DNA of 64,000 nucleotides, from positions 1 through 64,000 of the IMG/VR virus record IMGVR_UViG_3300027969_000044. One strand, written 5' to 3'. Numbering within the stretch: position 1 is the first letter of the stretch; every line of letters starts with the position of its first letter. This DNA is from a virus. A program made the translations under genes and the position numbers. The notes beneath the pieces were generated by a model. It saw only the letters and a program-made list of their open reading frames with translations, was not told where the DNA came from and searched no databases. This document shows, piece by piece, positions 11,850-61,022 of the stretch.

Positions 11850-11885
11850 TATTTACATTAAGATTACAAAACAGTTTGGTAAATA
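11850..11885. promoter_or_regulatory. Divergent pair of late-type TAAATA promoters
   Basis: TATTTA at 11850-11855 (minus) and TAAATA at 11880-11885 (plus) between divergent genes. Confidence 0.6.
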
Positions 11886-11917
11886 AGATGAACAGCACTT
11901 ATTGTGAGAGACTACAC

Positions 11918-20900: not shown

Positions 20901-21016
20901 CTGAAAGAGAAAACGGAATGTTAGCTGTTCGTTACGAACAAATAGTTCCACTATTGATAGAGGCTATTAAAGAGCTAAGGGCCGAAGTTGACTTTTTAAA
21001 GAAGGCAAGGAAATAA
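11918..21016 (+). CDS. Giant tail fibre/baseplate protein (~3030 aa) with C-terminal peptidase S74 chaperone
   Basis: N-terminal INIG...NDGTGDTIRDAFDKVNSNF baseplate-attachment motif; G.GY...P repeats; ATK.YVD repeats; C-terminal SDSRLK...GIIAQ..Y..IVPLLIEAIKEL; start moved to ATG 11918. Confidence 0.88.
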   Translation: MANKKIINIGNQSNDGTGDTIRDAFDKVNSNFDDLYNVAGLGDGLRFVKLREAPATLSSSTILGINTSATKIVQRTLVASTGVQITLTDDSIIIANTASNLKSDANPVLGGDLDGLFSHKGIKFSEPTNDYDTVTKKWVYDNFLNRDAKYEKDDTVPPAYFGNPVATAEGSTLRSNPIALTTATKAGHLVNKEYADRKISLKGAYSVDPATNTVNPAMGTMTGPLVLFRDPITQDDVDFGGKIAATKSYVDSSSFVSAVNFFVATTGRDNRTDIPSFKKGRALAYAFKTIGQAGKAAEEMLAISQVVLGPYQKLITTNNGLADVTVSNIVETSPYVAGAKRISVGWSGGEGKGTDAYANGSLFPGCYILGESTGAIGLVEKIGYTTGPNYENYDIVPVDYAKTIVSKLTQIQAQGNVILQFQTPNLVNIPEFWKGYIFKVDASVGGGEGQIVDVGYYTDPVTQDVYDRITVNFTTPLGNTNNIDGDKWHVYSGYFQLGERLRWGQRQDKTQITIVIESGEHLENYPVRLSRNVSIRGDEFRRSIPKPATFVNSDLSTISVSPWANIYFRRDTQTDGLLISQLNKDVDYAANEGGILTATPDGTENNRDTGVVTFTVSQTINGIPQPGYSLPSSWKGKVFVGNGGQGEILSVTANVFTVNLAQNSSFERKLTSSSASVGNQWHVYNPVNFGYHYLRDAKRPINYVIKNQAGNYLTSARLLALNKGYIQAEIGAYIDAKIALGVGIWAGFSLTTLQKQKCVRDVGTIIDAICADLDAGNISNCLTVADSYRNVPTVQNYELLQTVDAIAKIGELAQRVVQNIPTGEGQGINSYSTKAQTFDRTTYQSDMAVIRPTIGYALDPNNINIIDEGLGYQFPPTISFVGGGYSTIAKATANIDNDGKITGLTFTDVGAGYTSAPQIVVIRNQTGLPAVEAEIEIPLAPTGTIKSVEIVQPGRGYYSTPGVKVVGNPGASSGLITITTGTVGPYTVVTSANLVSGGTGYSEAYVQLDKGTGTGVDNSLNSLKNLTDGIGSVVGGNPDFNPPLYNDEMDCFLMNDANVIRYVSCQGHGGFMKVLDPEGQVLAKSPYTQTASSFSRSKNRQVFSGGMLVDGFAGNLQMTPRRNSQNNLEAEADLETGTLTKIFVEGLKRKPQTPTFFLHQGITFEVNFISEFQLDSSGVTYQATLNLNPARPGGFSSGYISATGFQGSKTLPVSLSSPTVPGGVKAVGTIQTDGAGALVGTGITFTNPGVGYVNTAATVVIGGAIISFPIDESGSVATGSVQIISSGTGYTNGMTVNFAASGGTGGVRANATVIAATGIGGITGFNWVNTGSGYTTSPDYWFGTGWNQRLAITNGFIGTLPSTIETITAGNRSMLANDFTQVNDLGYGIFVTNGGFMENVSMFTYYCWTSYYALNGAQIRTITGSSAYGNYGLVAEGSDPLETPIALKTLSDTNQIVNFKNATGYTNVAGASIVYAVVSNFDPYGKSEVEVNHYGVRKIYTIVSATRIPAGSGIPSNYYLFSLDTNGEKWFQTMTDGEVLNGTYRIKFQQKFSGLNPSVLTRTATVINYSEDPQTTYKISSFSYQGNDITLASSNNAYNYISIQPWVESIYRQGIYNVTKTGGTGYTAGQEVTLTFNTITPVTAYAQYAYASTTESTSSVIITNATGPLHVGMLANSADLVNNRVTWVNTSTSSPTRIGLTTAVKNITTISQITFTGTRAVAKGTANSSGVINSITVTESGIGYSADDSASGGPLPATASSGNLGVTAAKIAGLANTTVVKINQLKAADSARILAGLAASTPYYYMFGYDGFLFKITGYRSPTTTGQPWAEITIQRITQAGADITPNGLPSEMMANNLYAGVMRNQDAAITVKISTLRATSHDMVDIGTGGYASSKIPNDLFGPPLSAPAGSTSEVIELRKGRVFFVTTDQDGTFSVGGYLIVDQAKGQVSLNAPVALANLPSIKLQKGQLIDDFSADSALTGESNSTIPTERAIVQFVERRLGTSRSGAGTTLNLIGPGYLDLTGVQGMKNRLNMNSNLIQSLSNPGNSDYDATNKYYVDNRLHLDGTNAVWAADASVSFPGGAHPEWGKMRGPLWASAHPVAGDPALQVPTKRYVDKETRQLSTLSDVVFTAPQDIDLVGFSSTMYSESTATNKPIWHNTRQVVNLANDVTLPVNTPGNIGGGSDVAFTRTANTLTIKLTGASASGVYGGTLDASNPITDYHVNSAAQIRQYKLLMTEAKTTATNLSTIASQQGRQAHLGVSVYDSTMFSVTNGYVTLADSTLPTNGIVLSKLQQIPANGIGSGNAGGLLGSVLATAANVSILTSGTVVTFLQALTKDGRQTLTGNLTPEFDATVAAGVTLGSVSRTFKNVFADTFTGTATKAVALLSNITPHMYVEARVATSNGSIVQRSATGNITGVYLVDDSGSIAPATNESPDVGTTTKRFNNIYTKTISAGSSFSGNLFGSWTLTGVSGSRPELLGPDNGVPGTGANIGRDNAVGRINTVYTRTLVAEGANIVGMTITNVLNGSSAVFSGNVTAGSLTLNTTALEIGQGGTGGRDVGTALQNLLPTGINPGTVLTFGGSGNYYWGAGGGGGGDSVGTEITTSRNYFTAGTANGTGYNGDLYNFTLPLGAIYTAGQGQLRVYINGVRQFGTEITETSGGSTSPLTAATFRIPSGTTAGDSIMAEIDAYYSYPTTGASITYSPVGSMNATYNTVQKAIDYIENDKIRKVGGTLTAAASNGIGLTMGAGTTLQLAAGTITVPTMKIPSGALLTTPQAGAVEFDGSLLYATITSGNTRKTVAFQDWVGAQGFITLTSLSVGSNAAASGSGGIGYASATGIFTYTPPDLSSYQTKAGSVYLGSTAVPLNRVSGSLVLADVSVASATTAGSADALVITTDYQLGSLGVGKAAPGSNSIAVKGGITAEGDITAYYTSDSRLKTKIESITGALDKVSKLDGITFNWNEQADGKDQTRREAGIIAQQIQEVLPEAVAERENGMLAVRYEQIVPLLIEAIKELRAEVDFLKKARK

Positions 21017-45950: not shown

Positions 45951-46793
45951 ATGACAGATTATTACCACGCCCTTGGTGTTCAAAAGGGAGCTTCAGATGA
46001 TGAGATTAAAAAGGCTTATCGCAAACTGGCGATGAAGCACCATCCTGACCGCGGTGGCGATGCATCTGAATTTCAAAAGATACAAGAAGCATACGCCACA
46101 CTTAGTGATCCACACAAAAGAACAGAGTATGATAACCCCACTCCACAGTTTGGCGGCGGATCGGGGTTCCCTCCCGGATTCGAAGAAATGTTTCGAAACG
46201 GACAATTTGGAGATATGTTTGGAGGAGGTAACCCATTCTTTGGAGCAGGCTTTGGACGACAACCTCGACAATCAAAGAATAGAGACATAAGCCTCGAAAC
46301 ACAAGTTACATTAGAAGATGCCTTTTCCGGCAAGACAATTATGGCGAACATAAATTTGCCTAGCGGAAGAGAGCAAGTACTAGAAATTAAAATACCCCCC
46401 GGAATTAGCACAGGTCAACGCCTAAGACTACAAGGAATGGGCGATGATTCAAATCCGCATTTAAACAAAGGTGACATATACATTACCATTCATGTAGCAA
46501 GACACAGTACATATGAAAGAGAAGGCGATGATTTAATTACAGAAATTACTATTTCGGTCTGGGATGCTATGTTAGGAACCGATACAACTATTAAAACTCT
46601 CGACAACAGACAATTACAAGTAGGAATTCCAGCAGGAACGCAACCGGGTAGTACATTACGATTAGCAGGATACGGAATGTCAAACATACAAGATAGTCGG
46701 TTTAAAGGAAATATTTTATTAAACATTAATGTTAATGTACCTACTAATTTAACTGAAGAACAAAAAAATCTAGTTAAACAACTTAAGGCGTAA
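45951..46793 (+). CDS. dnaJ: DnaJ-class co-chaperone (class B/CbpA-like, no Zn finger)
   Basis: [24 protein letters not shown]-rich region, C-terminal domain. Confidence 0.93.
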
Positions 46794-46801
46794 ATATCGA
46801 T

Positions 46802-47305
46802 ATGCTAGAAATTAAAAAATTCCCCGACCCAATTTTAAAAGAACGTCTACAAGACTTTGATTTTGAAAATCCAGTAATGGATCCTGTAGAACTTGAACGC
46901 GAAATGTTAGCAACTATGTTTGCCAACAACGGTATCGGTCTTGCAGCAAATCAAGTTGGGATTAATGCCCGCGTGTTTGTAATGGGTTCTAAAGAAAACT
47001 TTTTAATGGCTAAAGCGTACTTTAATCCAAAGGTGCTTGCCAATACAGATACACTACAAGAACTGGAGGAAGGATGTTTGAGTTTTTCCAATATTTTTGT
47101 TAAAATAAAAAGACCAGATGCTATTAAGGTTGAATATCAAAATTCAAAAGGTGAAACTGAAACTTCAGAATTTAGTGGGTGGGACTGTAGAGTGTTTCTA
47201 CACGAATTTGATCATTTGGAAGGTATTACTTTCCAGGATCGAACTAGCCAACTTAAATGGGCATTAGCAATTAAGAAATCAAAACCTAAAAGGAAAGTAA
47301 AATAA
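46802..47305 (+). CDS. def: Peptide deformylase
   Basis: GIGLAANQVG, EGCLS, HEFDHLEG. Confidence 0.96.
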   Translation: MLEIKKFPDPILKERLQDFDFENPVMDPVELEREMLATMFANNGIGLAANQVGINARVFVMGSKENFLMAKAYFNPKVLANTDTLQELEEGCLSFSNIFVKIKRPDAIKVEYQNSKGETETSEFSGWDCRVFLHEFDHLEGITFQDRTSQLKWALAIKKSKPKRKVK

Positions 47306-47306
47306 T

Positions 47307-49595
47307 ATGATATTGGAACCAAACAGCGATCTTGAACAGATTTTTGAAAGAGCAGTTAATCTTGCCATTAAGAATCAGCACGAGTATATAACACTTGAGC
47401 ATTTCTTACACAGCATGGTCGTTGATCAAAAGTTTGGAGCATTGCTCAAGGACTTTGGAGCAGAGGTAGCTGACCTAAAAGCTAACCTAGAAAACTTCAT
47501 CGATAAAGAACTAGACGATATCAAGGTAGTTGCTAAAGATCAAAAGCCAAAGAAAACAAACACAGTTGAGCGTATGCTTAATCGTGCGTTTACACAGGTA
47601 TTGTTTAGCGGACGTAATGTAATTGATCCAGTTGATTGCTTTATTAGCCTGTTTGCCGAAAAGAAGAGTTTTGCCAACTACTTTTTACGTAAAGCTAAAG
47701 TAGACAAAGATGCGTTTATTAAATGGATTAATGAAGAAAATTCTAAAGACGAAGAAGAAGGCAGCGAAGGCGGCCGTGGTGGTGGTAGAGACTTAGATCG
47801 TTTGATTGGAAAGTATTGTGTTAACCTAACACAAAAAGTAAAGAACAAACAAATTGATCCTGTTATTGGCCGCGAAAAAGAGATCGAAGAAATTCAACTG
47901 GTACTTGCTCGCCGTACAAAGTCAAACGTTATGATGATCGGTGATCCGGGTGTAGGTAAGACTGCTATTGCTGAAGGTCTAGCACGTAAGATCTTTGAAG
48001 GTAGCGTTCCTAAATTTATTTTAAATCACACAGTTTATAGTCTAGACATCAGTGCTATGATCGCAGGTAGCAAATATCGCGGTGACTTTGAAGAACGTTT
48101 GAAAGGTGTTATTAAAGCACTTGAAAATAAGAAAGACGCTATTTTGTTTATCGACGAAGCACACATGATGAATGGTGCTGGATCAGCAGGTAGTGGTTCT
48201 AATGACATGTCTAATATGCTTAAACCAGCATTGGGCAAAGGTACTATTAAAGTTGTAGCAAGTACAACATGGGAAGAGTTCCGTAAACACTTTGAAAAAG
48301 ATCGTGCGTTGATGCGTCGATTCCAGCGTGTAGTTGTTAACGAACCTAACGAAGCTACCGCCATTAAGATCATCAAAGGTCTTAAAAAGTATTACGAAAA
48401 ACATCACGGTGTTAAGATTACAAATCAGGCCATTATTGATAGTGTTAAGTATTCTATCAAATACATGACTGATAAGAAGTTGCCAGATAAGGCAATTGAC
48501 TTAATTGACTGTGCGTGTGCTCGCTTTAAGGTTAGAGATCAGGAAGCAGGTATTGTTGATCACGACGAAATCTTGTTTGAAGTTAGTAAGATCGCAAACT
48601 TGCCTTTAGATCAAATTGCATCTAAAGAAAACAAGAATCTTGTTAACCTTGAAAAGAATATGCGTGGTAAGGTGTTTGGTCAAGAGAAAGCAATTGAAAT
48701 TCTGCTTGATAAAATCTTTATCGCACAAGCAGGGTTAAAGAGTATTAACAAACCAGTTGGTAACTTCTTGTTTGTTGGTCCAACTGGTGTTGGTAAAACT
48801 GAAACTGCTAAACAATTAGCAAGTAATATGAGTGTAGAACTTGTTCGCTTTGATATGAGCGAATTCCAAGAACAACATTCTGTTGCCAAGTTTATTGGTG
48901 CTCCTCCGGGATATGTGGGCTTTGAAGACAACGCAGGTCAGTTGATCACTAAACTACAAGAACATCCTAACTGTATCTTGTTACTTGACGAGATTGAAAA
49001 AGCTCACCCAAGTGTAGCAAACGTTCTACTACAACTTATGGATAACGGTTATGTTACTGGTTCAAATGGAAAAGTAGCAGACGGTCGTAATTGTATTTTG
49101 ATTATGACCAGTAACCTAGGTGCCGCTGATGCTGAAAAGAACGCGGTAGGATTTGGCAGTTTAGAACGTGATGATGACAGCAAAGATGCTATTAACACAT
49201 TCTTTAAACCCGAGTTTCGGAACCGTTTAGACGGCATTATCAAGTTTGGCAAGTTGGATCAAACTACTATGGTTAAGATTGTTAAGAAGTTTATTGACGA
49301 ACTTAATTCATTGTTAAAAGATCGCCATGTTCATGTTAAGCCCGATGCTGACGCAGTTGAGCTATTGATCAAGAAAGGCTTTAACAGTAAAATGGGCGCT
49401 CGTCCACTAGCACGTACTATTGACGACTTAATCAAGAAGCCGTTAAGTAAGCAGATTCTTTTTGGCAACTTACAAAATGGCGGATTAGTAGAAATACTAG
49501 TTAAAGGCGATGACCTTATGCTAAATTACATCGAAACATTACCAGTTGTTGATGTGAAAGCCGAAGAGATACAAATTGAAGACGCTGGAAACTAA
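47307..49595 (+). CDS. clpA: ATP-dependent Clp protease ATP-binding subunit (ClpA-like)
   Basis: N-domain HEYITLEH; Walker A GDPGVGKT and GPTGVGKT; no ClpB M-domain; ClpP-docking loop AVGF; GARPL. Confidence 0.93.
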
Positions 49596-50265
49596 AAAAC
49601 TCTTTTATAGAAAGTATCCATACAAAGTAGCTTGCCGAATCCAAGGCGGCTACTATGTAGCCAGGTACGGCCAAGATGCTGTACTCAAGGCCATGGAATG
49701 GAATAAAAAGTACGCAAATAACACATACGACTATCGCGTAGGTGGTGGGACAAAACTTAACTATGACGATTTAGATAAATTTGCTAACCTATCTAGAAAA
49801 TATCTAGTTAGAGATGACATTAGGGTCCGGGCAGAAGGTAGACATTTTAATTTGTTTAGTATGGACAAAGATACACACGAACAAATTATTAAAGATCTAG
49901 GAAACTGGGTAATGGAAGTCACTGAGCCAAAAAATGATAAAGACTTAGAGTATTTGCTGGCCAATAAATCAGTCAAAGTTATTGTAGATCAGTTTCCTTA
50001 CGAACACTACAAATATAAAATTGTCTTAAAAAGTACCATGAAAGCCGACCAAAGAGTTCGGTTTAACGGATGGCTTAACAAGTATACTGAGAAGGACATA
50101 CTTGTTAGTAGCATTACTACGCAACGATGGATGGATGATAAGAAGCAGTGGGCGCAAAATCCGTTCATTTATGTATCTGATGATGGAGTACGTACACTTG
50201 TAGAGTTATACTTAGGTGCTAACAAGAGCAGGACTGAAGAATTCGTATTGCGTTCTACTATATAA
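49576..50265 (+). CDS. Hypothetical protein
   Basis: 229 aa, TTG start; two similar ..YPYK/..YKYK segments. Confidence 0.75.
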   Translation: MKTLETKKLFYRKYPYKVACRIQGGYYVARYGQDAVLKAMEWNKKYANNTYDYRVGGGTKLNYDDLDKFANLSRKYLVRDDIRVRAEGRHFNLFSMDKDTHEQIIKDLGNWVMEVTEPKNDKDLEYLLANKSVKVIVDQFPYEHYKYKIVLKSTMKADQRVRFNGWLNKYTEKDILVSSITTQRWMDDKKQWAQNPFIYVSDDGVRTLVELYLGANKSRTEEFVLRSTI

Positions 50266-50282
50266 TGGCATAAATACATGTT

Positions 50283-50693
50283 ATGCCAGCATTAGCCAAA
50301 TCATTCTTATTTCCAAATCTTACTAACCCTGTTAGTACCAGCACCAGCATTAACTATCCTGGTGCTACTACCACTAGTACTTTTACTCGTGTAAGCGATA
50401 AGCAACCAGGTAACGGATACTATGGTGCTAGCAACGGTGTACATACCATAGCATATACTGTACAGCATAACTTTATTGGTACATGTACCGCTCAAGCAAC
50501 ACTGGCTACTGACCCTATTGATATAAACTCAACAAATACCGACTGGTTTGACGTTGTAGATTCACAAATAGAGTACAATTTGCCTGGATATACCACTACA
50601 AACTACGTAAATTTCTCAGGAAACTTTGTGTGGGTACGTGCTAAAGTAGATATCGACCTAGGCGGTATCCAGTTTATCAACTATAACCACTAA
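50283..50693 (+). CDS. Putative virion structural protein
   Basis: Thr-rich beta protein (NF.GNFVWVRA); TAAATA at 50271-50276. Confidence 0.65.
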   Translation: MPALAKSFLFPNLTNPVSTSTSINYPGATTTSTFTRVSDKQPGNGYYGASNGVHTIAYTVQHNFIGTCTAQATLATDPIDINSTNTDWFDVVDSQIEYNLPGYTTTNYVNFSGNFVWVRAKVDIDLGGIQFINYNH

Positions 50694-50764
50694 GCCATTT
50701 TTGTCATAAATACTCTATTATTACAGAGTTAGACTCTGTTCATGACATTAAGGTACGGTTATAT

Positions 50765-51154
50765 ATGAAACTTCTCGAATTCTTCGGAAAACCTATAGAA
50801 ATACACCAGGATAAAAACGATTCCCGTAAACCGGGAGAAGATCCTAAGTTAAATCGCGAAGAAGAAGATCAGCTTGCTAACGATATATTAGAGTATATCC
50901 TTAACAACGACGAGCTACACAAAAAGCAGTTTTTACCCGTAGCAAGAAAACTCCACAAAAACCCAACAACACATCACAAGCCTGATGTATGGCTACCTTT
51001 AGTAAACAAAGGATGTATGGAGTTTTACAAAGAACGAGATATGAGTGGCGATCCAATGGATCTATTCAATAAAGAATTTAGGTCTGACTTATGTAAGAAA
51101 TTTTCAGACCATAACAAACACATCCTCATGGGTGAATACAATCTCGGAAGATAA
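50765..51154 (+). CDS. Hypothetical protein with MKLLEF leader (candidate internal head protein)
   Basis: 129 aa; TAAATA at 50707-50712. Confidence 0.75.
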   Translation: MKLLEFFGKPIEIHQDKNDSRKPGEDPKLNREEEDQLANDILEYILNNDELHKKQFLPVARKLHKNPTTHHKPDVWLPLVNKGCMEFYKERDMSGDPMDLFNKEFRSDLCKKFSDHNKHILMGEYNLGR

Positions 51155-51157
51155 CCC

Positions 51158-54100
51158 ATGCTATTAAATGAATTTTTTAAAAGATCATTAACCGAGGGCG
51201 GAAATCTTGCCATTGGTCAAGATCAAGCGCAAAGCATTGATTTAAAAGTACACAACAGAGCTTTTATAGTTCCTATACTTACAAAACTATTATACGGAAT
51301 TAACGATGGGTTTGCCGCAGTTAATCAAAAGCCATTGTGGAATCCCGCCCTATTACAAAAGGGAGAATTCCTAAGCGGCTCTAGTTTACATTTCTTCAAC
51401 ACAAAGATTCCCGACGAGCAATTTGAAAAAGTTAAACCTAAAGTAGGCGACATTGACACACAAGTTGATAAGTTAATGGAGAAAGAACTAGAAGGATGGT
51501 TAAACTCTGTTAAGGGTAAACTTATTGGCGGAGGTAAGTTAATTGGCTTTGAGAGAGGCAACGAGCAATACAGTAGTCTATGGGAATTACAAGACCCTCC
51601 TATTAAAATACAAATTGACTTAGAGTTTGTTGCGTTTGACAAAGAAGAACCAACAGCATGGAGTAAATTTAGTCACTCAAGTGATTGGGAAGATATACAA
51701 GCAGGTGTCAAAGGTGTATTCCACAAATGGTTGATACAGTCATTTACAGATCTAACTACTCGTGATTTCTTATTGCGTAAACTAGTAGGTCGCGGCAAAG
51801 CCCGTGTTGAGCAAGATGTACCTGCCAATGACAACTTATTATCCTTTGCTGTTAGCAGTAAAGAAGGTGGCGGACTACGTCCTAAGTACGAGCCAGTGAC
51901 AGACGAAGCTGGACAGCCGTTAATTGTAGACGGGCTACCTGTTATGCGAGCATTGCCTCCTGCGGGATACGAACAAGACATTGGTAAGATATTTGCTCTA
52001 ATCTTTGGAGACAGAATTGATCCTAAGAAAGCAAAACAACTAAGCACTAAGTTTTGGTCATTTACTGGCTTGCTAGATGTAATGACACAGGTGTTAAGTC
52101 CTGAAGAACAACAACAAGTTGTACAGGCATTTATACATAAACTGTATGACAAGGGCGCACAAGGTCTTTATAAAAATGATCCAGAACGTGATGCCGAAGA
52201 AAAAGATGCCGCTATGGCCAAGATGCTTGAAGTATTAAAAATAGCGCCTCCTCCAGAACTAGCACAGATGAAGCAGTCATATCAAGCAAATTACAGAATG
52301 ACTACAAATGAAAGCCTGCGTGAAGCTGAAGAACCAGCACCAGTTAAGGCACAGCTACGCAAAGGTATGCCACACTTACACGATCTAAAGGCTCCTGATT
52401 TTTTAGACCTATTAGATGAGATTCACGACGGCAACGGTAACTTCAAGTTACAAAACGTTCCATTAAATGTCAAAGTAGACGGCTTTGGTGGACGATTTGG
52501 TAAAGATGCTAACGGTAAACCATTCATGGGTACTAGCCGAACAGAGCCACGTTACGAAGCCAGCTTTGTCAAGTATCATCAACAAAAGGGCACAACAGAT
52601 CCAGAGATCTTAGGTCGTGCTCAAATGTTTGACGACTTGTTTAAAGAAATGATGAACGCTATTAAACTAGTCGATGGCAAACTAGGCCCAGACTTTTTAA
52701 TCAACAAACAAGTAACTTGTGAAGTATTGTTCTTACCATTTGCTACACAAACTGACGAAGGTCGTTTAAAGTTTGTGGGCATTGAATACGATCAACTACC
52801 ACAAGGTGTACAACTGGCACTAGTTCCATTTCATGCTGTAGAAGCAGATAGTGGAGAGCCTGTTGAAGATCCAGAATTTATTGATAGCTTACTTGAAGTA
52901 GGTAATCAAGGTAGTGTTATGTTTATTAACAATAGACTAGCACAGAAAGAAGGACTTGACGTTACAGAAATTATCAATGTATTAGATAACATTGAAGAAC
53001 TAAAACAAATTGTATCTGATACAGCAGGCAAGCGTGACCGCGCTAGTCTACAGTTAAAGAAAGAAGTAGAAGAAAAACTACAACCTATTAAAGATCAATT
53101 AGAGCAAGCAATTATTAAAGATCCTAACATTATTGGAAAAGATATGTTAGGTAAAGACTATGAAGGCATTGTTATTAACAGTCGTCTCGGTCCTATCAAA
53201 ATTACCAGTCAAGAACAGCGTGATGTTATCAGTGCCAAGTTAGATGCTAAGAAAAATGCTCGCACAGAACGTCCCCGTGATAATCAAAACAAGACAGCAG
53301 TAGTTGCCATTGGTAGCTTTGTTGGACACAAGGGTCATCAAGAACTTTGGCAGTATACACAACAAGAAGCCCAAACACTGGGCGGCGATCCGTATTTGTT
53401 CATCGGTAATGCCGAAGGCAAAGACGATCCTATTCCTGTTCCCGACAAACTTAAAACATGGCACATGTTGTATCCGCAGTTTGCCAAAAACATCAGCGCG
53501 GTTACGCACGAAGGTGGAAGCATTATGCAGAAGATTAAACACGAGTTGATTAATCCTTTACCAGGCAAGCCTCCACGTTACGACAATATTGTTATTATGG
53601 TTGGCGAAGATCGTAAAGACTTACCGTTAGGTAAAGCTCTAATGAAAGCTGTTAATAAGTTTCCAGGATACGAGCACGTTAAAGTAGACTTAAAAGTTAC
53701 TCCACGTGGTCAAGGAGTAAGCGGCACTGCTCTTAGAAATATTCTAAAGACAGGCAACCCTAACCAACAATACACATTCTGGAATGACACATTTAACGGT
53801 GGCAAGTTTGGATCACAACAATTAACTCCAGAATGGATTAAACACCTAATGGATGTAACCAAGAAAGGTATGGGCATTACTACCCCTTCAGTTACAGCAC
53901 CAATTAAGAAACAGGAACAACCAACTATGGCTAAACCTCAACAACCAGTACAGCAACAGCAACCAGAGCAAGAGCCGTTAGCTGAAAGTATCCGTAGAGA
54001 AATTATGATTACTCGAGCAGAGATTGCTTGGCAGAAAGAATTGTCGGAAGCAAGGATGAGTGCTGCCGTTAAACTTCAACGAGCCTTTGATAGAGAGCGT

Positions 54101-55633
54101 TCTAAGAGTGACGCTAGTCGTCAACGTGCTGACGCGGCCAAGGCAGCGTTTGAGAAAGAGTGGAAAGCTAAACAAGAAAAAGAAAAGCAAGGTGTGGCAG
54201 AAGATTTAGAAACAGGACATGTGCAAATGCTTTTACATAAAGCATTACAGGCACGCAGAGAAGGCAAACCATTGCAAAGTGTAATGCGTAAAGAAGAAAT
54301 TGCATTATTATCTATGTTGCAAGGAAGTGGAAAACTACAAGGTATGGTTAAAAATAAAAGTGTAGGCGAGGCGCCAATTGAAATGGATCCTGCAGAACCA
54401 ATGAATCCTACAATCTACGGACATCAAGGAGTTAACTCTGCCGAATTAAAAACTCGCATGATGCGAGCTCAAGGACAATTAGCAGACCTGGCAAAGAGAG
54501 CACAAAACGCTAGCCCAATTGAATGGGAAATAATTACACGTAATTTTAAAGAGTTGTCAATGAACATTGAACAGATTCGTCACGCACTAGAAGAACTAGC
54601 TAAAGTTCGCAAGCGTGGTGGGATTCGATCTAGAGGCATTGATAAAAATATTGGTGAGCAAGGTGTGGCGGAAGGCTTATTAGACCCTTCTAAAAGAACT
54701 CAGCTTATTCGTTTCCTAGCAAAGAAAATGGATTGGGAAGTTAACTATCTCGAACTTGCTACTGATCATGAACTTATCAAATGGTACAAAAAAGTACAAG
54801 CCGGTCAAGATCCAATGAAGGAAGATTCGGTAAATGAATTAGTTGGTTATAAAAGCGATAAAAATTATCTAGCGGTAGGTACCCATAAACGATACGATGT
54901 ATATGTGGGTAAAAAGAAGTTTAATAATTTATACTTTATTGCAATTGCAGAAAATCCAAGAACATTAGATGCTAAATTTAAAGCCAAGGGCAATACTCCA
55001 CAAGAGGCAGTAAATAATTTAAAATTAGAAATTGATAAAGAAATTGATGTTGCTACCAAAGTTAGTGGTGCGGCTATATTAGATTTTAATGTAGATTTTG
55101 TAAAAGAAATATTAGAAATGAGTATTGATACGTTTTACGCTAAAATTATTTCAGGTCCTAAATTAGTAATAGCAGGTAGAGAAATGATGGAATACCCTGA
55201 TATTATGAAAAGTGAAGGGTTTAAACCTAGTACCATTAGAACTTACAAAGGCGGAGAAGGTACTACTAAACTACCCGGAGTACCATTAAGCGCCGGAGCG
55301 GCTGCGGCTGCAAGTCTTATTGCCAACGGTAGATATGTATTAGGCGCAGAAACTACAGATAAAGACGGTAACAGAGTATTCAATTTAGAATTTGATAGCG
55401 TTGTTCAAGCATCAAACGATAAAATGAGATTAAGAGCACCTGCGGTTACTGTAGGAACTAATAGATCACAAGGTGTTGCGGAGGCCGGTAAGATTAAGGG
55501 CGCTGACGGTAAAGCCTGTTGGAAAGGTTATAAGTACGCAGGTACTAAGAACGGTAAAGACAAGTGTGTTCCAGTTAGCGAAGATGCGGAACAACTAATG
55601 GCAGGTTTTATTAAGTTGTTGGAATCAAAGTAA
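51158..55633 (+). CDS. 1491-aa modular protein: Pol-beta-type NTase, ligase-type (KxDG) NTase, HIGH-type NTase and C-terminal cassettes
   Basis: LSGSS..VGDIDTQV..IQIDL; NVKVDG..YEGIVI..IKI; IGSFVGHKGH..VGEDR..SGTALR; QGVAE linkers three times. Confidence 0.75.
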   Translation: MLLNEFFKRSLTEGGNLAIGQDQAQSIDLKVHNRAFIVPILTKLLYGINDGFAAVNQKPLWNPALLQKGEFLSGSSLHFFNTKIPDEQFEKVKPKVGDIDTQVDKLMEKELEGWLNSVKGKLIGGGKLIGFERGNEQYSSLWELQDPPIKIQIDLEFVAFDKEEPTAWSKFSHSSDWEDIQAGVKGVFHKWLIQSFTDLTTRDFLLRKLVGRGKARVEQDVPANDNLLSFAVSSKEGGGLRPKYEPVTDEAGQPLIVDGLPVMRALPPAGYEQDIGKIFALIFGDRIDPKKAKQLSTKFWSFTGLLDVMTQVLSPEEQQQVVQAFIHKLYDKGAQGLYKNDPERDAEEKDAAMAKMLEVLKIAPPPELAQMKQSYQANYRMTTNESLREAEEPAPVKAQLRKGMPHLHDLKAPDFLDLLDEIHDGNGNFKLQNVPLNVKVDGFGGRFGKDANGKPFMGTSRTEPRYEASFVKYHQQKGTTDPEILGRAQMFDDLFKEMMNAIKLVDGKLGPDFLINKQVTCEVLFLPFATQTDEGRLKFVGIEYDQLPQGVQLALVPFHAVEADSGEPVEDPEFIDSLLEVGNQGSVMFINNRLAQKEGLDVTEIINVLDNIEELKQIVSDTAGKRDRASLQLKKEVEEKLQPIKDQLEQAIIKDPNIIGKDMLGKDYEGIVINSRLGPIKITSQEQRDVISAKLDAKKNARTERPRDNQNKTAVVAIGSFVGHKGHQELWQYTQQEAQTLGGDPYLFIGNAEGKDDPIPVPDKLKTWHMLYPQFAKNISAVTHEGGSIMQKIKHELINPLPGKPPRYDNIVIMVGEDRKDLPLGKALMKAVNKFPGYEHVKVDLKVTPRGQGVSGTALRNILKTGNPNQQYTFWNDTFNGGKFGSQQLTPEWIKHLMDVTKKGMGITTPSVTAPIKKQEQPTMAKPQQPVQQQQPEQEPLAESIRREIMITRAEIAWQKELSEARMSAAVKLQRAFDRERSKSDASRQRADAAKAAFEKEWKAKQEKEKQGVAEDLETGHVQMLLHKALQARREGKPLQSVMRKEEIALLSMLQGSGKLQGMVKNKSVGEAPIEMDPAEPMNPTIYGHQGVNSAELKTRMMRAQGQLADLAKRAQNASPIEWEIITRNFKELSMNIEQIRHALEELAKVRKRGGIRSRGIDKNIGEQGVAEGLLDPSKRTQLIRFLAKKMDWEVNYLELATDHELIKWYKKVQAGQDPMKEDSVNELVGYKSDKNYLAVGTHKRYDVYVGKKKFNNLYFIAIAENPRTLDAKFKAKGNTPQEAVNNLKLEIDKEIDVATKVSGAAILDFNVDFVKEILEMSIDTFYAKIISGPKLVIAGREMMEYPDIMKSEGFKPSTIRTYKGGEGTTKLPGVPLSAGAAAAASLIANGRYVLGAETTDKDGNRVFNLEFDSVVQASNDKMRLRAPAVTVGTNRSQGVAEAGKIKGADGKACWKGYKYAGTKNGKDKCVPVSEDAEQLMAGFIKLLESK

Positions 55634-56040
55634 TGCTATTAACACAGCTATTTGAATCAGCAACTAATGACGCAACCCTAATGGATATGTTGCCTACGTT
55701 CTTACCTTTAGCTTTAGAAATTTTAGAATTACGCAACGTGCCTAATATTAAATTAGAAAAGTTTATTGACGACGAAGTACAACCTACATTTGGTAAATTT
55801 GTCAGTGATGAGAACATAATTTACTTAGGAATTGCCAACAGACACCCTGTAGATATTTTACGTACACTGGCACACGAAATGGTACATTATAAACAAAACA
55901 TAGAGCACGATCTAGATAGCGAATCAGGTCGCACAGGAAGTCCTCAAGAAAATCAAGCACATGAAATTGCCGGAGTTATTATGCGAGAGTTTAATAAAGC
56001 AAATCCAGAATTCCTAAAAGCTAGGCCATTAGAGTTTTAA
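55633..56040 (+). CDS. Zincin-like metallopeptidase (HEXXH)
   Basis: LRTLAHEMVHYKQ with downstream E (QENQA); leader MLLTQLFE. Confidence 0.75.
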   Translation: MLLTQLFESATNDATLMDMLPTFLPLALEILELRNVPNIKLEKFIDDEVQPTFGKFVSDENIIYLGIANRHPVDILRTLAHEMVHYKQNIEHDLDSESGRTGSPQENQAHEIAGVIMREFNKANPEFLKARPLEF

Positions 56041-56051
56041 TAAATACCCAT

Positions 56052-56435
56052 ATGAGAGCAAACGAATTTATTTCTGAAAATCGCAAAGCAGGCAAAGTAA
56101 AGAAACGTGCCGCGGCTGTACAGCAAGGCATTAGAAAGTCTCGCGATGTTGGCGGATATGATCGTGTAAATCACATGAATCGTTTGTGGATGGCAACTGC
56201 TATGGCAGACGGCCAAAGTAAAAAAGGTGTAGATATGGATAGTTACAGTTGGATGGAAAAATACAACACACAACATCCATATACACAAGAAGAATACAAT
56301 ATGTTCAGGCAAGCAGAAAATACTGTCCCAACGGATAGTAAAGAAGTTACACCATGGACAAAGAGTGTAGAGCCAGAAGATACTTATAAAGTAAGTCCGT
56401 CCTCTACATGGAATGTTAAGAAGAAAAAGAAATGA
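56052..56435 (+). CDS. Hypothetical protein with MRANEF leader
   Basis: 127 aa; TAAATA at 56041-56046. Confidence 0.75.
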   Translation: MRANEFISENRKAGKVKKRAAAVQQGIRKSRDVGGYDRVNHMNRLWMATAMADGQSKKGVDMDSYSWMEKYNTQHPYTQEEYNMFRQAENTVPTDSKEVTPWTKSVEPEDTYKVSPSSTWNVKKKKK

Positions 56436-56608
56436 AGATTAGAGAATTATTAGAAGCGGCAAGTAGCGGAGCAACTGGCTCCGGTTCTATTGCGACCGTA
56501 ACTAATCCTGGTGGGAAACCAGCTAGTCAAGTAGGATCTCTGTTTGGTGGTACTTACGGAGAATCTAAAAAAACTAAACCTAAAAAATTTATTAAGAGAC
56601 CGCAATGA
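56432..56608 (+). CDS. Small protein with MKIRELLE leader (58 aa)
   Basis: Manual translation MKIRELLEAASSGATGSGSIATV...KKFIKRPQ; ATGA overlaps at both ends. Confidence 0.75.
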   Translation: MKIRELLEAASSGATGSGSIATVTNPGGKPASQVGSLFGGTYGESKKTKPKKFIKRPQ

Positions 56609-57645
56609 CTAAAAAAATAAAAGAAATTAGTACAGGTGACTATTACTCTAAAGCACACAAGGGGAAAATTTCTGCAGCATCTAAAATGATGTTTGCTGAT
56701 CCTGCTAAGCCAGAAGTACAAAAAGCAATGCGTGACTTTAAGAATAGAGACGCAGGAATGAAACGTGTTTCAGCAAGAAATCAAAAAGCCAGACAGACAA
56801 CTGCTGATAAGAACCGTCAGGGTGCCCTTGCAGCCGATAAAGAAAATCTTCCAGCGTTAATGGCACAGTTTCAAAAGCTAAGAGGTCAGTATGATCCTAA
56901 TTTTGAATACAGTGACGATCACAGTTTTTGGTCAAAGCAAAAAGATATCCAGCAACAATTAAGTGCGTTACAAAAACGTATTAACGATGCTGGTGGAAAA
57001 GTATCAGAGGGAACTAATCCCGAGTATGACGACGAAGCAGGTATGTCTGATAATAATCTAGAAACACTGAGAAGAACAATCGACGGCATAGATGGTTTGA
57101 TTAAGCCCGGTGATAATTTACCAGAATGGTGTCAGGAAAAAATTGCTGTTGCCAAATCTATGTTAGTAGCAGTATGGGACTACATGCAGTCCGAACAGGA
57201 AAGAGGCGCAATGGAAGGTGTTGGCGATTTAGGATATGACGCACAATCTTTAATAATGAAACTGCGACGAGATGTTGAAGAAAAAAGATTACAACCAACT
57301 CCGCAAGCAGTATTAGCGGCCGCATCAGAATTAGCAGGAGATATGAAATTTGCTCCTCAACTACTAGTTCAACAAGTCTTGGGCAAGGGTGTAGCAGAAG
57401 GCGGTGTTAAAGAATGGAAAAAGGGAGTCAAGGCTCCGGTTAAACCACGTAACTTTGTAGCCAAAAATGCGTCAACTGGCGGTGCTGGCGCACATAAAGA
57501 TAAAAAGAAAGATGCTAAACAAGGAAAAGCCAAGCATAAAAAAACTCCAGAGTTAGCCGAAACAGCAACATATGATCGTAGATTAAATGTATTATTAGAA
57601 GCGAAAATGCTAACTAGCCAAATTAGAGATTATAGAAAGAAATAA
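56605..57645 (+). CDS. Modular hypothetical protein (candidate processed head protein)
   Basis: Segments bounded by KIKE, KVSE, GAME, KGVAE and ELAE; basic C-terminal module. Confidence 0.75.
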   Translation: MTKKIKEISTGDYYSKAHKGKISAASKMMFADPAKPEVQKAMRDFKNRDAGMKRVSARNQKARQTTADKNRQGALAADKENLPALMAQFQKLRGQYDPNFEYSDDHSFWSKQKDIQQQLSALQKRINDAGGKVSEGTNPEYDDEAGMSDNNLETLRRTIDGIDGLIKPGDNLPEWCQEKIAVAKSMLVAVWDYMQSEQERGAMEGVGDLGYDAQSLIMKLRRDVEEKRLQPTPQAVLAAASELAGDMKFAPQLLVQQVLGKGVAEGGVKEWKKGVKAPVKPRNFVAKNASTGGAGAHKDKKKDAKQGKAKHKKTPELAETATYDRRLNVLLEAKMLTSQIRDYRKK

Positions 57646-57657
57646 ATCATAAAAGAC

Positions 57658-57707
57658 TTGACTTCTCCTGTGTACATCTATATACTATAGAACACAGGAG
57701 ATTTTTT
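57658..57707 (+). promoter_or_regulatory. sigma70 promoter inside a terminator/RBS-sequestering hairpin
   Basis: TTGACT (57658-57663), 17 bp, TATACT (57681-57686); TCTCCTGTGT (57664-57673) / ACACAGGAGA (57692-57701) followed by TTTTTT. Confidence 0.85.
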
Positions 57708-57977
57708 ATGAGCAAAGCATTTGGCGCCCCAGAACAAGCAAAGATTAAACAGATTGTTTCAGAGGGCATGACAGTTATGCAAGAAATTCAAGACCTAACA
57801 GAAGGCTTGAACGAAACAATTAAAGCTGTCGCAGAAGAACTAGAAGTTAAACCTAGCGTGATCAAAAAAGCGATTAAAATTGCGCTTAAAGATCAATGGG
57901 ATCAAGTATTCCGCGAGTTTGACGATTTGGAAACTATTGTTGATATTAGTGGTCATAGCTTCCGCAAGGAAGATTAA
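57708..57977 (+). CDS. Putative dsDNA-binding protein (T4 DsbA/GapR-like)
   Basis: 89-aa helical protein with I..L...L...IK...EEL......IKKAIK pattern; upstream of replication genes. Confidence 0.55.
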   Translation: MSKAFGAPEQAKIKQIVSEGMTVMQEIQDLTEGLNETIKAVAEELEVKPSVIKKAIKIALKDQWDQVFREFDDLETIVDISGHSFRKED

Positions 57978-58273
57978 TGTTAGGAACAATCTTTGAACCA
58001 ACTATACAGTGGATAAAAGATGATTGGAGTTCTAATAAGCCTCGCTTTATTATTGAGCTCCTTGCTTGGGCTGTGTCTATTGGCTGTAGTATCACAATGG
58101 CAGTCACAGTCCCTAATCCTCCTCTTCTCGTATTATATCCTATCTGGATTAGTGGCTGTGCTATGTATGCTTGGGCTTCATGGACTAGGAAGAGCTTCGG
58201 TATGCTGGCTAATTACATCTTGCTAACAACCATTGACACAATCGGACTCATGAGAATGTTGTTCTGGCAATAA
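57977..58273 (+). CDS. Three-TM membrane protein
   Basis: Three hydrophobic helices. Confidence 0.7.
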   Translation: MLGTIFEPTIQWIKDDWSSNKPRFIIELLAWAVSIGCSITMAVTVPNPPLLVLYPIWISGCAMYAWASWTRKSFGMLANYILLTTIDTIGLMRMLFWQ

Positions 58274-58288
58274 TAAATAATATTGAGA

Positions 58289-58347
58289 AAGGTTCAGTCA
58301 GCCACAAATGACTAAGATAGAAGGTTGCCGGCCATAAGCGGTAGGAG
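58289..58347 (+). promoter_or_regulatory. Tandem hairpin leader, candidate translational operator of the DNA polymerase
   Basis: AGTCA-GCCACAAA-TGACT and TGCCG-GCCATAAG-CGGTA, each preceded by AAGGT(T); the second abuts SD AGGAG. Confidence 0.65.
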
Positions 58348-58352
58348 AGATT

Positions 58353-61022
58353 ATGAGTTATGTAGATGCGATCTGGAATCGCGACGACAACGTTATTCGC
58401 GTCGTTGAACGCGATCCAAAAAAGGGTAGAATCTTTACAGACTATCCAGCAAAGTATATTTTTTACTATCCCGATCAAAGGGGCAAGTACAAATCAATTT
58501 ACGGTGAAAACCTATCAAAAGTTCAATGTAAAGACTTTAAAGAATTTGCTAAAGAACAAAGAATCCATAGTGGACATAAGTTATACGAAAGTGATATTAA
58601 TCCAATCTTTCGTGTACTAGAAGAAAACTATCTAGGACAAGACTCCCCAAATTTAAATGTAGCGTTCTTCGACATTGAAGTAGACTTTGATCCAGAACGT
58701 GGCTACGCATCACCTGAAGATGCGTTTATGCCAATTACTGCAATCAGTGTCTACCTACAGTGGATGGAAACAATGATTACTCTGGCTATTCCTCCAAAGA
58801 CTATGACTATGGAGCAGGCCAAGGAAGCTGTTAAAGAGTTTTCAAATACTATACTGTATGAAAATGAAGGAGAGATGCTTGATGAGTTTCTCAACTTAAT
58901 TCAGGACGCAGATGTTATTAGTGGTTGGAATAGCGAAGGATTCGACGTTCCGTATACCGTTAATCGTGTTACTAAAGTCCTAAGCAAAGAGGACACACGT
59001 AGATTCTGTCTGTGGGACAAGTTTCCCAAGAAACGTGAATATGAAAAATATGGTAAAGATGCTGTAACATATGACTTCCACGGTCGTGTACACTTGGACA
59101 GTTTAGAATTGTATCGCAAGTATACATATGAAGAGCGCCATACCTATAGACTAGATGCTATCGGTGAAATGGAAATTGGCGAAAGCAAAACTGTCTACGA
59201 AGGTACATTAGATCAACTGTACAACAATGACTTTCGAAAGTTTATCGAATACAACAGACAAGATACTTTCTTGTTAGACAAACTAGATAAGAAGCTAAAG
59301 TTTATTTCTCTTGCCAGTACCGTCGCTCACGAAAACACAGTATTGTTACAAACAACAATGGGTGCGGTAGCTGTAACTGAACAGGCTATTATTAACGAAG
59401 CCCATCACAGGGGACTCATTGTTCCTAGTCGTCCAAAACGTGATGAAACTAAAGACGCACAGGCCGCAGGTGCTTACGTTGCGTATCCAAAGAAAGGCAT
59501 TCATGATTGGATTGGTTCGTTAGACATTAACTCACTATACCCATCTGTCATTCGTGCGTTGAACATGGGTCCGGAAACTATCATTGGGCAGTTGCGTCAA
59601 GATTACACGCAAACAGAAATTGATGCTAAGATAGCTAAAGGTTCTAGTTTTGCCGCGGCATGGGAAGGTAAGTTTGCGTCTAACGAATATGAATTTGTTA
59701 TGGCAAAGGACAAAGCCAACGAAATCATTATTGACTGGGAAGATGGAAACACCAATGTATTAACTGGTGCTCAAGTATACGATCTAATATATGAAAGCAA
59801 TCAACCGTGGATGCTCAGTGCCAACGGTACAATCTTTACGCATGAACATGAAGGTATTATTCCTGGACTACTAGCACGTTGGTACAAAGAACGTAAAGAT
59901 ATGCAGAAGAAATTAAAGGAAGCTATTAATGCTGGAAACAAAATTGAAGAAGAATACTGGGATAAACGTCAGCTCGTTAAAAAGATTAATCTTAACAGCC
60001 TGTACGGTGCTATTCTCAACGTTGGTTGTCGTTTCTTTGACAATCGTATTGGTCAATCAACCACACTTACTGGGCGAGCCATTGCTCGCCACATGGCCTC
60101 AAAAATAAATGAAGTCGTTACTGGCGAATACAATCATTTAGGTAAAGCTATTATCTATGGTGATACTGACTCTGCTTATTTTAGTGCGTATGCTAGCCTT
60201 AAGAAAGACATTGACAAAGGTTCCATTCCTTGGGACAAAGAAACTGTTATTCAAATTTACGATCAAATCGCAGATGAAGTTAACGGAACATTTCCACAGT
60301 TTATGTTAGATGCGTTTCACTCTCCAAAGTCTCGTGGAGAAGTTATCAAAGCAGGTCGAGAACTTGTTGCGATCAAAGGCCTATTCATTACCAAGAAACG
60401 CTATGCTGTTCTTTATTTTGATAAAGAAGGCAAGAGAAGTGACATAGAAGGAAAGCCGGGCAAGATCAAAGCCATGGGCTTAGATTTGAAACGCAGTGAT
60501 ACTCCAGAATTTATGCAAAAGTTTTTAGAAGAACTTCTAACTAAGGTACTTAACGGTAGCAAGGAAGAAGAGATTCTAGACCGAATTGGCGAATTTAGAA
60601 CTGAGTTCAAAGCTAGACCCGGTTGGGAGAAAGGTAGTCCGAAAAGGGCTAACAATATTACAGAGTACGAGGCCAAAGAAAAGAAAGCTGGCAAAACAAA
60701 TATGCCAGGCCACGTTCGGGCCAGTATTAACTGGAATACACTAAAACGTATGAACGGAGACAAATACTCTGTAAACATCGTTGACGGTATGAAGGTTATT
60801 GTATGTAAGCTAAAAGCCAATCCACTAGGGTATACATCAGTTGCGTACCCAGTTGACGAATTACGCTTACCAAAGTGGTTCCAAGAATTGCCGTTTGATC
60901 ACGGGGAAATGGAAACTACTATTATTAATAACAAACTGGAAAACCTTATTGGAGTTCTGGAATGGGATTTAGAATCGACTACACAAGATAACACCTTTGG
61001 TAGTCTGTTTAGTTTTGATTAA
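58353..61022 (+). CDS. Family B DNA polymerase with 3'-5' exonuclease (gp43-like)
   Basis: ExoI FDIE, ExoII WNSEGFD, ExoIII YNRQD; motif A DINSLYPS, B KINLNSLYG, C YGDTDS. Confidence 0.97.
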   Translation: MSYVDAIWNRDDNVIRVVERDPKKGRIFTDYPAKYIFYYPDQRGKYKSIYGENLSKVQCKDFKEFAKEQRIHSGHKLYESDINPIFRVLEENYLGQDSPNLNVAFFDIEVDFDPERGYASPEDAFMPITAISVYLQWMETMITLAIPPKTMTMEQAKEAVKEFSNTILYENEGEMLDEFLNLIQDADVISGWNSEGFDVPYTVNRVTKVLSKEDTRRFCLWDKFPKKREYEKYGKDAVTYDFHGRVHLDSLELYRKYTYEERHTYRLDAIGEMEIGESKTVYEGTLDQLYNNDFRKFIEYNRQDTFLLDKLDKKLKFISLASTVAHENTVLLQTTMGAVAVTEQAIINEAHHRGLIVPSRPKRDETKDAQAAGAYVAYPKKGIHDWIGSLDINSLYPSVIRALNMGPETIIGQLRQDYTQTEIDAKIAKGSSFAAAWEGKFASNEYEFVMAKDKANEIIIDWEDGNTNVLTGAQVYDLIYESNQPWMLSANGTIFTHEHEGIIPGLLARWYKERKDMQKKLKEAINAGNKIEEEYWDKRQLVKKINLNSLYGAILNVGCRFFDNRIGQSTTLTGRAIARHMASKINEVVTGEYNHLGKAIIYGDTDSAYFSAYASLKKDIDKGSIPWDKETVIQIYDQIADEVNGTFPQFMLDAFHSPKSRGEVIKAGRELVAIKGLFITKKRYAVLYFDKEGKRSDIEGKPGKIKAMGLDLKRSDTPEFMQKFLEELLTKVLNGSKEEEILDRIGEFRTEFKARPGWEKGSPKRANNITEYEAKEKKAGKTNMPGHVRASINWNTLKRMNGDKYSVNIVDGMKVIVCKLKANPLGYTSVAYPVDELRLPKWFQELPFDHGEMETTIINNKLENLIGVLEWDLESTTQDNTFGSLFSFD

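Follow-up and report, generated by a model that had tools for sequence, protein, structure and literature searches.

Why should a run of adjacent virus genes, encoding proteins with little else in common, open with the same kind of short leader? The question is raised by positions 50765-57645 of the stretch of DNA analysed here (hereafter the window), which covers the initial 64 kb of one virus contig of 166,311 bp (IMG/VR record IMGVR_UViG_3300027969_000044), rated 46% complete. An initial annotation had proposed that these genes form a late operon of proteins that are packaged in the capsid, matured there and injected with the DNA. The analysis favours, with a probability of roughly three in four, the reading of the cluster as a locus for internal proteins, or capsid cargo, in an uncultured jumbo phage that has T4-type core genes.

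A common leader and its predicted cleavage site

The six adjacent open reading frames (ORFs) described in the initial annotation were all found on the + strand, with gaps of no more than 12 nucleotides (nt) and with the N-termini that had been reported. They are listed here together with the leader of ORF 2, with lengths in amino acids (aa) and with the isoelectric point (pI) of the basic products:

50765-51154, + strand, ORF 1: 129 aa, starts MKLLEFFG; in some relatives, the nucleotidyltransferase protein carries this family as an upstream fusion
51158-55633, + strand, ORF 2: 1491-aa putative polyprotein with a leader, three nucleotidyltransferase domains and three modules set off by QGVAE joints
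51158-51196, + strand, leader of ORF 2: 13 aa, MLLNEFFKRSLTE, predicted to be cut after L-T-E, where an invariant GGN begins
55633-56040, + strand, ORF 3: 135-aa small Zn-peptidase-like protein, leader MLLTQLFE, HEMVH at 55873-55887
56052-56435, + strand, ORF 4: 127-aa basic protein, leader MRANEFISE, mature part of pI 9.8
56432-56608, + strand, ORF 5: 58-aa basic protein, leader MKIRELLE, mature part of pI 10.5
56605-57645, + strand, ORF 6: 346 aa, starts MTKKIKE, with an I-K-E site and without the targeting core

The proteins had been called otherwise unrelated, and this was borne out by their mature parts, for which the best BLASTP E-value was 0.065 (in a database of the seven sequences); no match above the Pfam cut-offs was obtained for any of the six. 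The claim of a common leader stood for ORFs 1 to 5, which share the pattern M-x3-[EQ]-[FL]-[FILV], and fell for ORF 6 (MTKKIKE), which has the I-K-E alone. A site of the (L/I/V)-x-E type is present within the first 13 residues of all six. Across the 166-kb genome sequence, with its 148 ORFs of at least 50 aa, the motif M-x3-[E/Q]-[F/L]-[F/I/L/V] heads six ORFs, five of them consecutive, against 0.43 expected from the frequency of the motif inside proteins.

The sixth ORF headed by the motif lies outside the window (genome 123818-124660) and encodes a 280-aa Ala/Gly/Pro-rich basic protein starting MKIAELITE, without a family match. It is located beside the head module, near baseplate-hub, tape-measure-like and portal genes. 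A perfect copy of the T4 late promoter sequence TATAAATA, of which there are only four in the genome, is found 41 nt upstream of this gene.

The predicted cleavage site could be followed in homologues of the first domain of ORF 2 (domain 1), in which the leader directly precedes the invariant GGN. Database homologues and IMG/VR loci together provided 128 distinct leaders with a length of 7-37 residues, in which P1 is Glu in 127 cases, P2 is free and P3 is Leu in 81, Ile in 42 and Val in 5, so that L/I/V occupies this position in 128 of 128. At the level of sequence this pattern is the cleavage rule of T4 gp21, namely L/I-x-E (PMC9026906). Of 120 database homologues of domain 1, GGN is preceded by a leader with a terminal E in 113, and three start with MGGN. 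The homologues of the cultured Xanthomonas phage X1, Stenotrophomonas phage Ps15 and Vibrio phage phiKT1024 start with M-GGN. The first residues of these leaderless homologues are those of the mature N-terminus predicted for the present phage after the cut at L-T-E. In the related loci L081/L082 and L085, a whole protein of 124-139 aa (of the ORF 1 family or the Zn peptidase) stands in the place of the leader, with junctions which still read L-M-E/GGN or I-M-E/GGN. The leader of ORF 2 is disordered in an AlphaFold model, with a predicted local distance difference test score (pLDDT) of 44 for the leader and 91 for the model, and the fold begins at about residue 18.

A gp21-like prohead protease, the presence of which had also been set beforehand as a check, is encoded in the genome. 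The gene at genome 131816-132448 was identified as Peptidase_S77 (gp21-type prohead protease) with 91 bits against a cut-off of 27, and matched the PHROG head maturation protease with 197 bits; its neighbours encode the portal, a scaffold-like protein and the major head protein. The family was present in the contigs of three of five relatives, including one rated 93% complete. This relative, with a contig of 331,570 bp, encodes the same prohead protease and has approximately ten convincing leader genes dispersed over its genome, two of which adjoin the head protease. The PolB of the window (58353-61022) shares 50% identity with that of Sinorhizobium phage Phosso, 43% with that of Agrobacterium phage Atu_ph07 and approximately 45% with those of the 121Q group of jumbo coliphages. 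These identities, the gp21-type protease within a head module and the size of the 331,570-bp relative point to an uncultured jumbo phage with T4-type core genes as the source of the contig. The leader locus itself gave no match by megablast against 50,697 phage records.

For one homologue of domain 1 there is evidence from virions. Purified particles of Campylobacter phage vB_CcoM-IBB_35 were analysed by sodium dodecyl sulphate-polyacrylamide gel electrophoresis and electrospray ionization tandem mass spectrometry (Carvalho et al., 2012; PMC3322345), and the resulting virion table contains gene 1-56 with 17.0% coverage, a gene annotated at 39251-40417 of contig 1 as encoding a hypothetical 44,446-Da product with 'no homologs' (PMC3322345). 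The tblastn match of domain 1 in this phage is the ORF of gene 1-56 (HM246720.1 39251-40417), the translation of which has 388 aa and 44,446 Da, starts with MKLSELMFILEGGN and bears the leader MKLSELMFILE before GGN. Its place in the virion list, the homology to domain 1 and the leader together indicate that, in a cultured T4-like phage, this family has a leader-bearing member in the virion. Like domain 1 here, the product of gene 1-56 is a Pol-beta-fold homologue with a leader before GGN, and it was detected in purified virions; unlike ORF 2 it is a single-domain protein, with 24% identity, and its authors noted no leader or processing.

To place the cluster among related viruses, IMG/VR was searched for relatives. 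No relatives were found with a single protein as query, and 249 were found in a scan with an alignment of domain 1, of which 80 IMG/VR loci (L008-L087) were analysed; the contigs derive from freshwater samples. The locus is syntenic in these, with a ClpA-like gene and two further genes on one side and the small regulator-like gene, a membrane protein and PolB on the other. In the 35 loci with both anchors, the leader was present in 136 of 270 distinct in-locus proteins and in 15 of 479 flanking ones (odds ratio 31, p = 8e-55, a value which is only indicative because the loci share ancestry). Across the related loci the leader is attached to approximately 70 unrelated first domains (cargo families), and within a single family, that of the Zn peptidase, leaders of different types have been swapped (MKITELLVE, MRANQFIFE and MLLTQLFE).

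Several further observations were made in related loci. A HAD-like protein (YLDMDGVLADFF) is leaderless in L021 (13474-14307) and carries leaders in L022 (14615-15784) and L075 (9401-9952), namely MRAEEFSLPKG and MRLLEFTNKPT, and appears to be a second case of one enzyme alternating between leaderless and leader-bearing forms. Two leaderless genes that are absent from this window recur, encoding a protein of ~90 aa ('MKQYRITS...DDCYLAPDDP') and a Dps/ferritin-like protein of ~145 aa ('AFAS...NFHW'), for example at 14286-14549 and 14556-15002 of L014. In Synechococcus phage S-WAM2 (KU686211.1 144579-150752), a KWDG ligase-like gene is followed by a cytidyltransferase gene, and the same locus has small genes with the T4-tag-like starts MKTFKQLRE and MKDFKKLRE.

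Predicted enzymatic cargo and the QGVAE joints

The cargo had been described as three nucleotidyltransferases, a zinc peptidase and basic peptides, and this content was recovered as three nucleotidyltransferase folds, an HEMVH metallopeptidase-like protein and basic fragments of pI 9.2-10.5. The features of ORF 2 downstream of its leader are as follows:

51197-52312, + strand: Pol-beta-fold nucleotidyltransferase domain (domain 1), aa 14-385, with G-S at aa 74-75, D98-x-D100, and D154/E156 invariant
52340-53257, + strand: ligase-type (covalent) nucleotidyltransferase domain, aa ~395-700, with KVDG at 52472-52483
53258-53857, + strand: HxGH nucleotidyltransferase domain (PPAT/NMNAT/FAD-synthetase type), aa ~700-900, with GHKGH at 53324-53338
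54191-54202, + strand: QGVAE joint 1, aa 1012-1015, predicted protease site
54662-54673, + strand: QGVAE joint 2, aa 1169-1172
55472-55483, + strand: QGVAE joint 3, aa 1439-1442, which would release a 49-aa basic C-terminal peptide (pI 9.2)

When the 1491-aa sequence was compared with those of solved structures, no significant match was obtained, and the domains were assigned by fold and motif. For domain 1, Foldseek returned weak matches with none at E ≤ 0.001; the assignment is based on VIA-align Z scores of 7-8 against TUT7, GLD-2, Pol mu and Pol beta, and on the residues G74, S75, D98, D100, D154 and E156, which are invariant in 38 sequences. The second domain was matched by Foldseek to RNA ligase 8uce and DNA ligases 9dfa, 3rr5 and 2cfm with a probability of 0.99-1.0, and the K, D and G of its KVDG are invariant across homologues. 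By its modelled fold and KxDG motif it is assigned to the ATP-dependent ligase or capping-enzyme type. The third domain was matched to PPAT, NMNAT and FAD synthetase (Foldseek probability 1.0, target-normalised TM-score up to 0.67) and to the cytidyltransferase phrog_3041 (E = 1e-9), with Pfam FAD_syn staying below its cut-off; the H-K-G-H of its motif is invariant across homologues.

These domains form a putative three-nucleotidyltransferase enzyme of 112 kDa, and they are fused in 70-72 of the 80 related loci, as in this phage. The corresponding pieces in Xanthomonas phage X1 and Stenotrophomonas phage Ps15 are separate leaderless genes. Nucleic-acid end repair (polymerase/tailing plus ligase) or nucleotide cofactor synthesis may be suggested as candidate roles for the fusion.

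A point missed in the initial annotation is that two of the cluster ORFs appear, from their internal QGVAE joints, to encode polyproteins. The peptide GVAE occurs four times in the whole genome in six-frame translation, three times in ORF 2 and once in ORF 6. In the relatives, 48 joints were counted in in-locus proteins, with up to seven in one protein, against none in 106,463 flanking residues. The modules delimited by the joints reappear elsewhere, in different proteins and in a different order, with homology ending at the joints. It is suspected that the joints are internal sites for the prohead protease, by which one leader would load several modules. Predicted mature fragments would then be residues 14-1015, 1016-1172, 1173-1442 and 1443-1491 of ORF 2 and residues 266-346 of ORF 6. 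The cluster's own Zn peptidase was considered as a required joint cutter and rejected; 28 of 37 GVAE loci have no peptidase homologue in the stretch examined, which makes it unlikely that this enzyme is needed for the cutting.

The joints are also conserved at the nucleotide level. Compared with the genes of these loci overall, their codons are skewed to GTG for Val (76% vs 13%), GCG for Ala (85% vs 7%) and GGT for Gly (91% vs 44%), giving a consensus core of CAAGGTGTGGCGGAAGG with unconserved flanks. Such wobble-conserved joints lie at 54188-54205, 54659-54676, 55469-55486 and 57385-57402 in the window, and are found across L008-L087 as well. Conservation at wobble positions goes beyond what protease recognition explains and suggests a role at the level of DNA, for which recombination or gene conversion at the joints is an obvious candidate.

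As regards the smaller products, ORF 3 matches the metallo-protease phrog_87 (E = 4e-7) and contains an HExxH motif (HEMVH), with all Pfam peptidase families below their cut-offs; some source records name its homologues 'ImmA (M78)'. Nearly all of the 120 listed homologues of ORF 3 have a leader ending in [LI]-x-E. The basic set, with pI values of 9.2-10.5, consists of ORFs 4 and 5 and two C-terminal modules. Residues 1-24 of ORF 5 match phrog_17311, and in relatives this ORF is the N-terminal module of a longer polyprotein. ORF 6 has a KGVAE joint at 57388-57399, followed by a basic DUF7230-like module of 81 aa (pI 10.4) which in relatives directly follows an N-terminal leader.

The start of ORF 6, K-I-K-E/ISTGDY, aligns with an internal K-L-D-E/VSLGDY of a relative's polyprotein, and its counterpart in relatives is an internal polyprotein module; the 346-aa protein has otherwise only short matches, in cyanophages. 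It was also observed that ORFs 5 and 6 (56432-56608 and 56605-57645) overlap by ATGA, that they correspond to one continuous polyprotein in relatives (e.g. L013 14453-15355) and that A-rich runs are present on both sides of the junction. The split into ORFs of 58 and 346 aa accounts for the lack of a targeting core in the 346-aa protein.

Transcription signals and neighbouring genes

The following late-promoter-like boxes were noted at the cluster:

50705-50712, + strand: CATAAATA box, agreeing with the T4 late promoter TATAAATA at 7/8 positions; the first leader gene starts 52 nt downstream
56039-56046, + strand: AATAAATA box, 6 nt from the ATG of ORF 4

Both of the TAAATA boxes on which the initial annotation had drawn are thus present where they were placed; the 6-mer as such is nonspecific, with 90 occurrences in the genome. 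The longer ATAAATA occurs 23 times, mostly at gene boundaries. At a distance of 6 nt from the ATG, the AATAAATA box is too close to be likely to serve ORF 4. Transcription of the cluster as a late operon is plausible on these signals.

A scan of 49500-58500 for sigma-70 promoters and terminators was no richer than shuffled sequences. A sigma-70-like promoter (TTGACT, 17 nt, TATACT; 10/12) was seen at 57658-57686, in the 62-nt gap before the small regulator-like gene at 57708, and probably marks a change of transcription unit after 57645. A 7-bp inverted repeat (ACAGAGT TAG ACTCTGT) is present at 50722-50738, downstream of the CATAAATA box and ahead of the ribosome-binding site of ORF 1, and could form a hairpin in the leader or terminate transcription of the virion-like gene upstream.

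Nearly all genes of the window are on the + strand. DnaJ-like, peptide-deformylase-like and ClpA-like (762 aa) proteins are encoded in 45951-49595 and a ClpP-like protein at 6135-6728. It should also be mentioned that an ORF of 3046 aa (11876-21016) lies upstream of a run of large tail-fibre-like ORFs.

Alternative explanations and known packaging systems

If the cluster is a capsid cargo locus, each product would start with a leader of approximately 8-13 residues of the form M-[K/R/L]-x-x-E-[F/L]-[F/I/L]-x-E, which would take the protein into the prohead scaffolding core, as the T4 capsid targeting sequence does, and which the gp21-type serine protease of the phage would then remove after (L/I/V)-x-Glu. 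In the two polyprotein products, several modules would enter on one leader and would be separated afterwards at the QGVAE joints. The cargo would comprise the 112-kDa Pol-beta/ligase/HxGH fusion, the small zinc peptidase and several basic peptides.

The view of the initial annotation that the leaders are T4-type capsid-targeting propeptides, cut after (L/I)-x-E, is supported by the protease gene, the P1/P3 rule, the M-GGN homologues, the approximately 70 cargo families and the virion homologue. The leader-tagged proteins are very probably packed into the particle of this phage, and targeting and cleavage of the leader are predicted on the same grounds. Ejection into the host, with an early role in, for example, nucleic-acid repair or counter-defence, may be expected in turn; proteins which arrive with the DNA act before phage gene expression and would thus be prime candidates for counter-defence or repair.

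A number of points weigh against this interpretation. The phage is uncultured, and its contig is only 46% complete. The leader motif was defined after the data had been seen, a concern that is eased by its holding in 80 independent related loci, and the shared ancestry of those loci means that p-values overstate their independence. Within the cluster, ORF 1 offers, apart from L-L-E at residue 5, no clear site for the cut, and ORF 6 is without the targeting core. For the present phage the virion evidence is indirect, as it comes from an IBB_35 homologue of only 24% identity, and contaminants can be present in preparations of virions. Leaderless genes, such as the Dps-like and 'MKQYRITS' genes, are also held in the loci of relatives, and the leaderless homologues of domain 1 show that the enzyme works without packaging as well. 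At the joints, P3 is Val, a residue found at this position in 5 of 128 leaders, whereas T4 gp21 prefers L/I; furthermore, the joints are wobble-conserved with rare codons (n = 74 distinct sites).

The first alternative is that the leaders are real propeptides of proteins which act inside the head and are not delivered, as accessories of the core or scaffold, DNA-condensing peptides or enzymes working on the packaged DNA. The small size and basic character of several mature fragments (pI 9.2-10.5) are like those of DNA-binding head proteins, the Pol-X-like and ligase-like domains could act on DNA, and in T4 several L/I-x-E sites are likewise used for cutting the core proteins gp22, gp67 and gp68 (PMC9026906). 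However, the T4 internal proteins and Alt, which have such leaders, are ejected with the DNA, and neither the Zn peptidase nor an enzyme of the NMNAT/PPAT type has an evident substrate inside a capsid. The cargo set, moreover, varies strongly between relatives, which fits host-directed functions better than assembly functions. A purely head-internal role is considered improbable.

It is very unlikely that the leader is instead a degron or timing signal for the phage's own unfoldase and protease, with the proteins remaining unpackaged. A ClpA-like gene (47307-49595) does lie three genes upstream, in a synteny conserved in most related loci, a ClpP-like ORF was recognised by sequence at 6135-6728, and if the leader were cut behind its first Glu, an N-end-rule residue (Phe or Leu) would become exposed. 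Yet an invariant (L/I/V)-x-E at a variable distance from the Met, right before a folded domain, is the signature of a gp21-like site, a leader-bearing homologue was found in virions, and the sixth leader gene adjoins the head module behind a perfect TATAAATA.

Another explanation operates at the level of DNA or mRNA, with the common 5' ends being recombination joints or translation-initiation regions and the peptide itself being functionless. It could draw on the nucleotide conservation and rare codons of the QGVAE joints, at which modules shuffle, and on the regulatory cassettes that are reported to mediate modular shuffling in T4-type genomes (PMC2839356, PMC4122927). The leader-coding regions of the window are, however, identical at only 11-18 of 27 nt, with the peptide pattern kept, and the leaders vary in length and sequence whereas P1 and P3 do not. 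This explanation also leaves the homologue in the virion unaccounted for, and little likelihood is attached to it. That the leader is recognised by a modifying enzyme, for instance a radical-SAM maturase, is suggested by a radical-SAM gene directly upstream of the Campylobacter phage homologue but is most improbable: in the 80 related loci, examined with flanks of up to 10 kb on each side, there was no QueE-like protein and no protein with CxxxCxxC within its first 120 residues.

Within the capsid cargo interpretation, a wider proposal is put forward tentatively and is rather doubtful at present, namely that injected effectors are loaded by this locus in a plug-and-play manner. Each polyprotein would need one leader, the QGVAE peptide would be both a cut site and a DNA recombination joint at which modules are swapped, lost or reordered, and enzyme families would alternate between leaderless forms made after infection and leader-bearing forms packed beforehand. 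If this were true, the injected and probably counter-defence proteome of uncultured T4-like phages could be read from sequence.

The capsid targeting sequence of T4 has been something of a textbook curiosity with three natural clients. The same logic would here be found in a distant, abundant and uncultured clade of jumbo phages, applied to dozens of unrelated proteins and to multi-module polyproteins. A simple rule, consisting of an N-terminal leader and (L/I/V)-x-E before a folded domain, would mark the proteins that ride in the capsid, and T4-style packaging of proteins could be extended to other phages by means of the leaders and joints. The large cargo, an unexpected one, is directly testable, as a single-domain homologue is documented in the virion of a Campylobacter phage. 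The T4 sequence is MKTYQEFIAE, the EFIAE of which is matched by the core EFISE of ORF 4, and a homologue of domain 1 (P0114) has KTYQQFIAE directly before GGN. According to a published review, residues 4 and 7 of the T4 tag are the main determinants of targeting, and residues 8 and 10 those of processing. As in the T4 internal-protein system, a leader core of the E-F-I-x-E type ends in L/I-x-E, a gp21-family protease is encoded, and the leader is the sole common part of unrelated cargo which varies between related phages and is in some cases small and basic. Unlike that system, the present one belongs to a distant jumbo lineage (~330 kb in the 93%-complete relative), has leaders of 7-37 residues and a 112-kDa three-enzyme fusion as predicted cargo, and would have one leader for several modules joined by a fixed QGVAE peptide. 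Approximately 70 cargo families across the relatives compare with three internal proteins in T4.

Among single proteins, a close parallel is T4 Alt, an ADP-ribosyltransferase which is packaged and which gp21 cuts at both of its ends. Here too a large enzyme travels in the head, is trimmed by the prohead protease and enters with the DNA in the case of Alt, as would the present cargo, which differs in its enzyme folds, three nucleotidyltransferase folds being fused to further modules. The ejection and inner-body proteins of phiKZ and SPN3US (gp175, gp245; PMC5694885, PMC10052503) resemble the present products in that many head proteins are cut after Glu, within short motifs, by a diverged gp21 homologue, some at several sites. 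They belong to another lineage with other motifs, and no description of a short transferable T4-type tag or of a fixed joint peptide was found for them (PMC5694885, PMC10052503). In the literature, capsid targeting of this kind is described for T4 and is also mentioned for P1, with protease-processed head cargo described for phiKZ and SPN3US; no description of capsid targeting in uncultured jumbo phages was found in the literature searched. The system of the present locus appears to share every sequence-level feature of the T4 internal-protein system that was tested, and to differ from it in lineage, in scale, in its enzymatic cargo and in its fixed-joint polyproteins.

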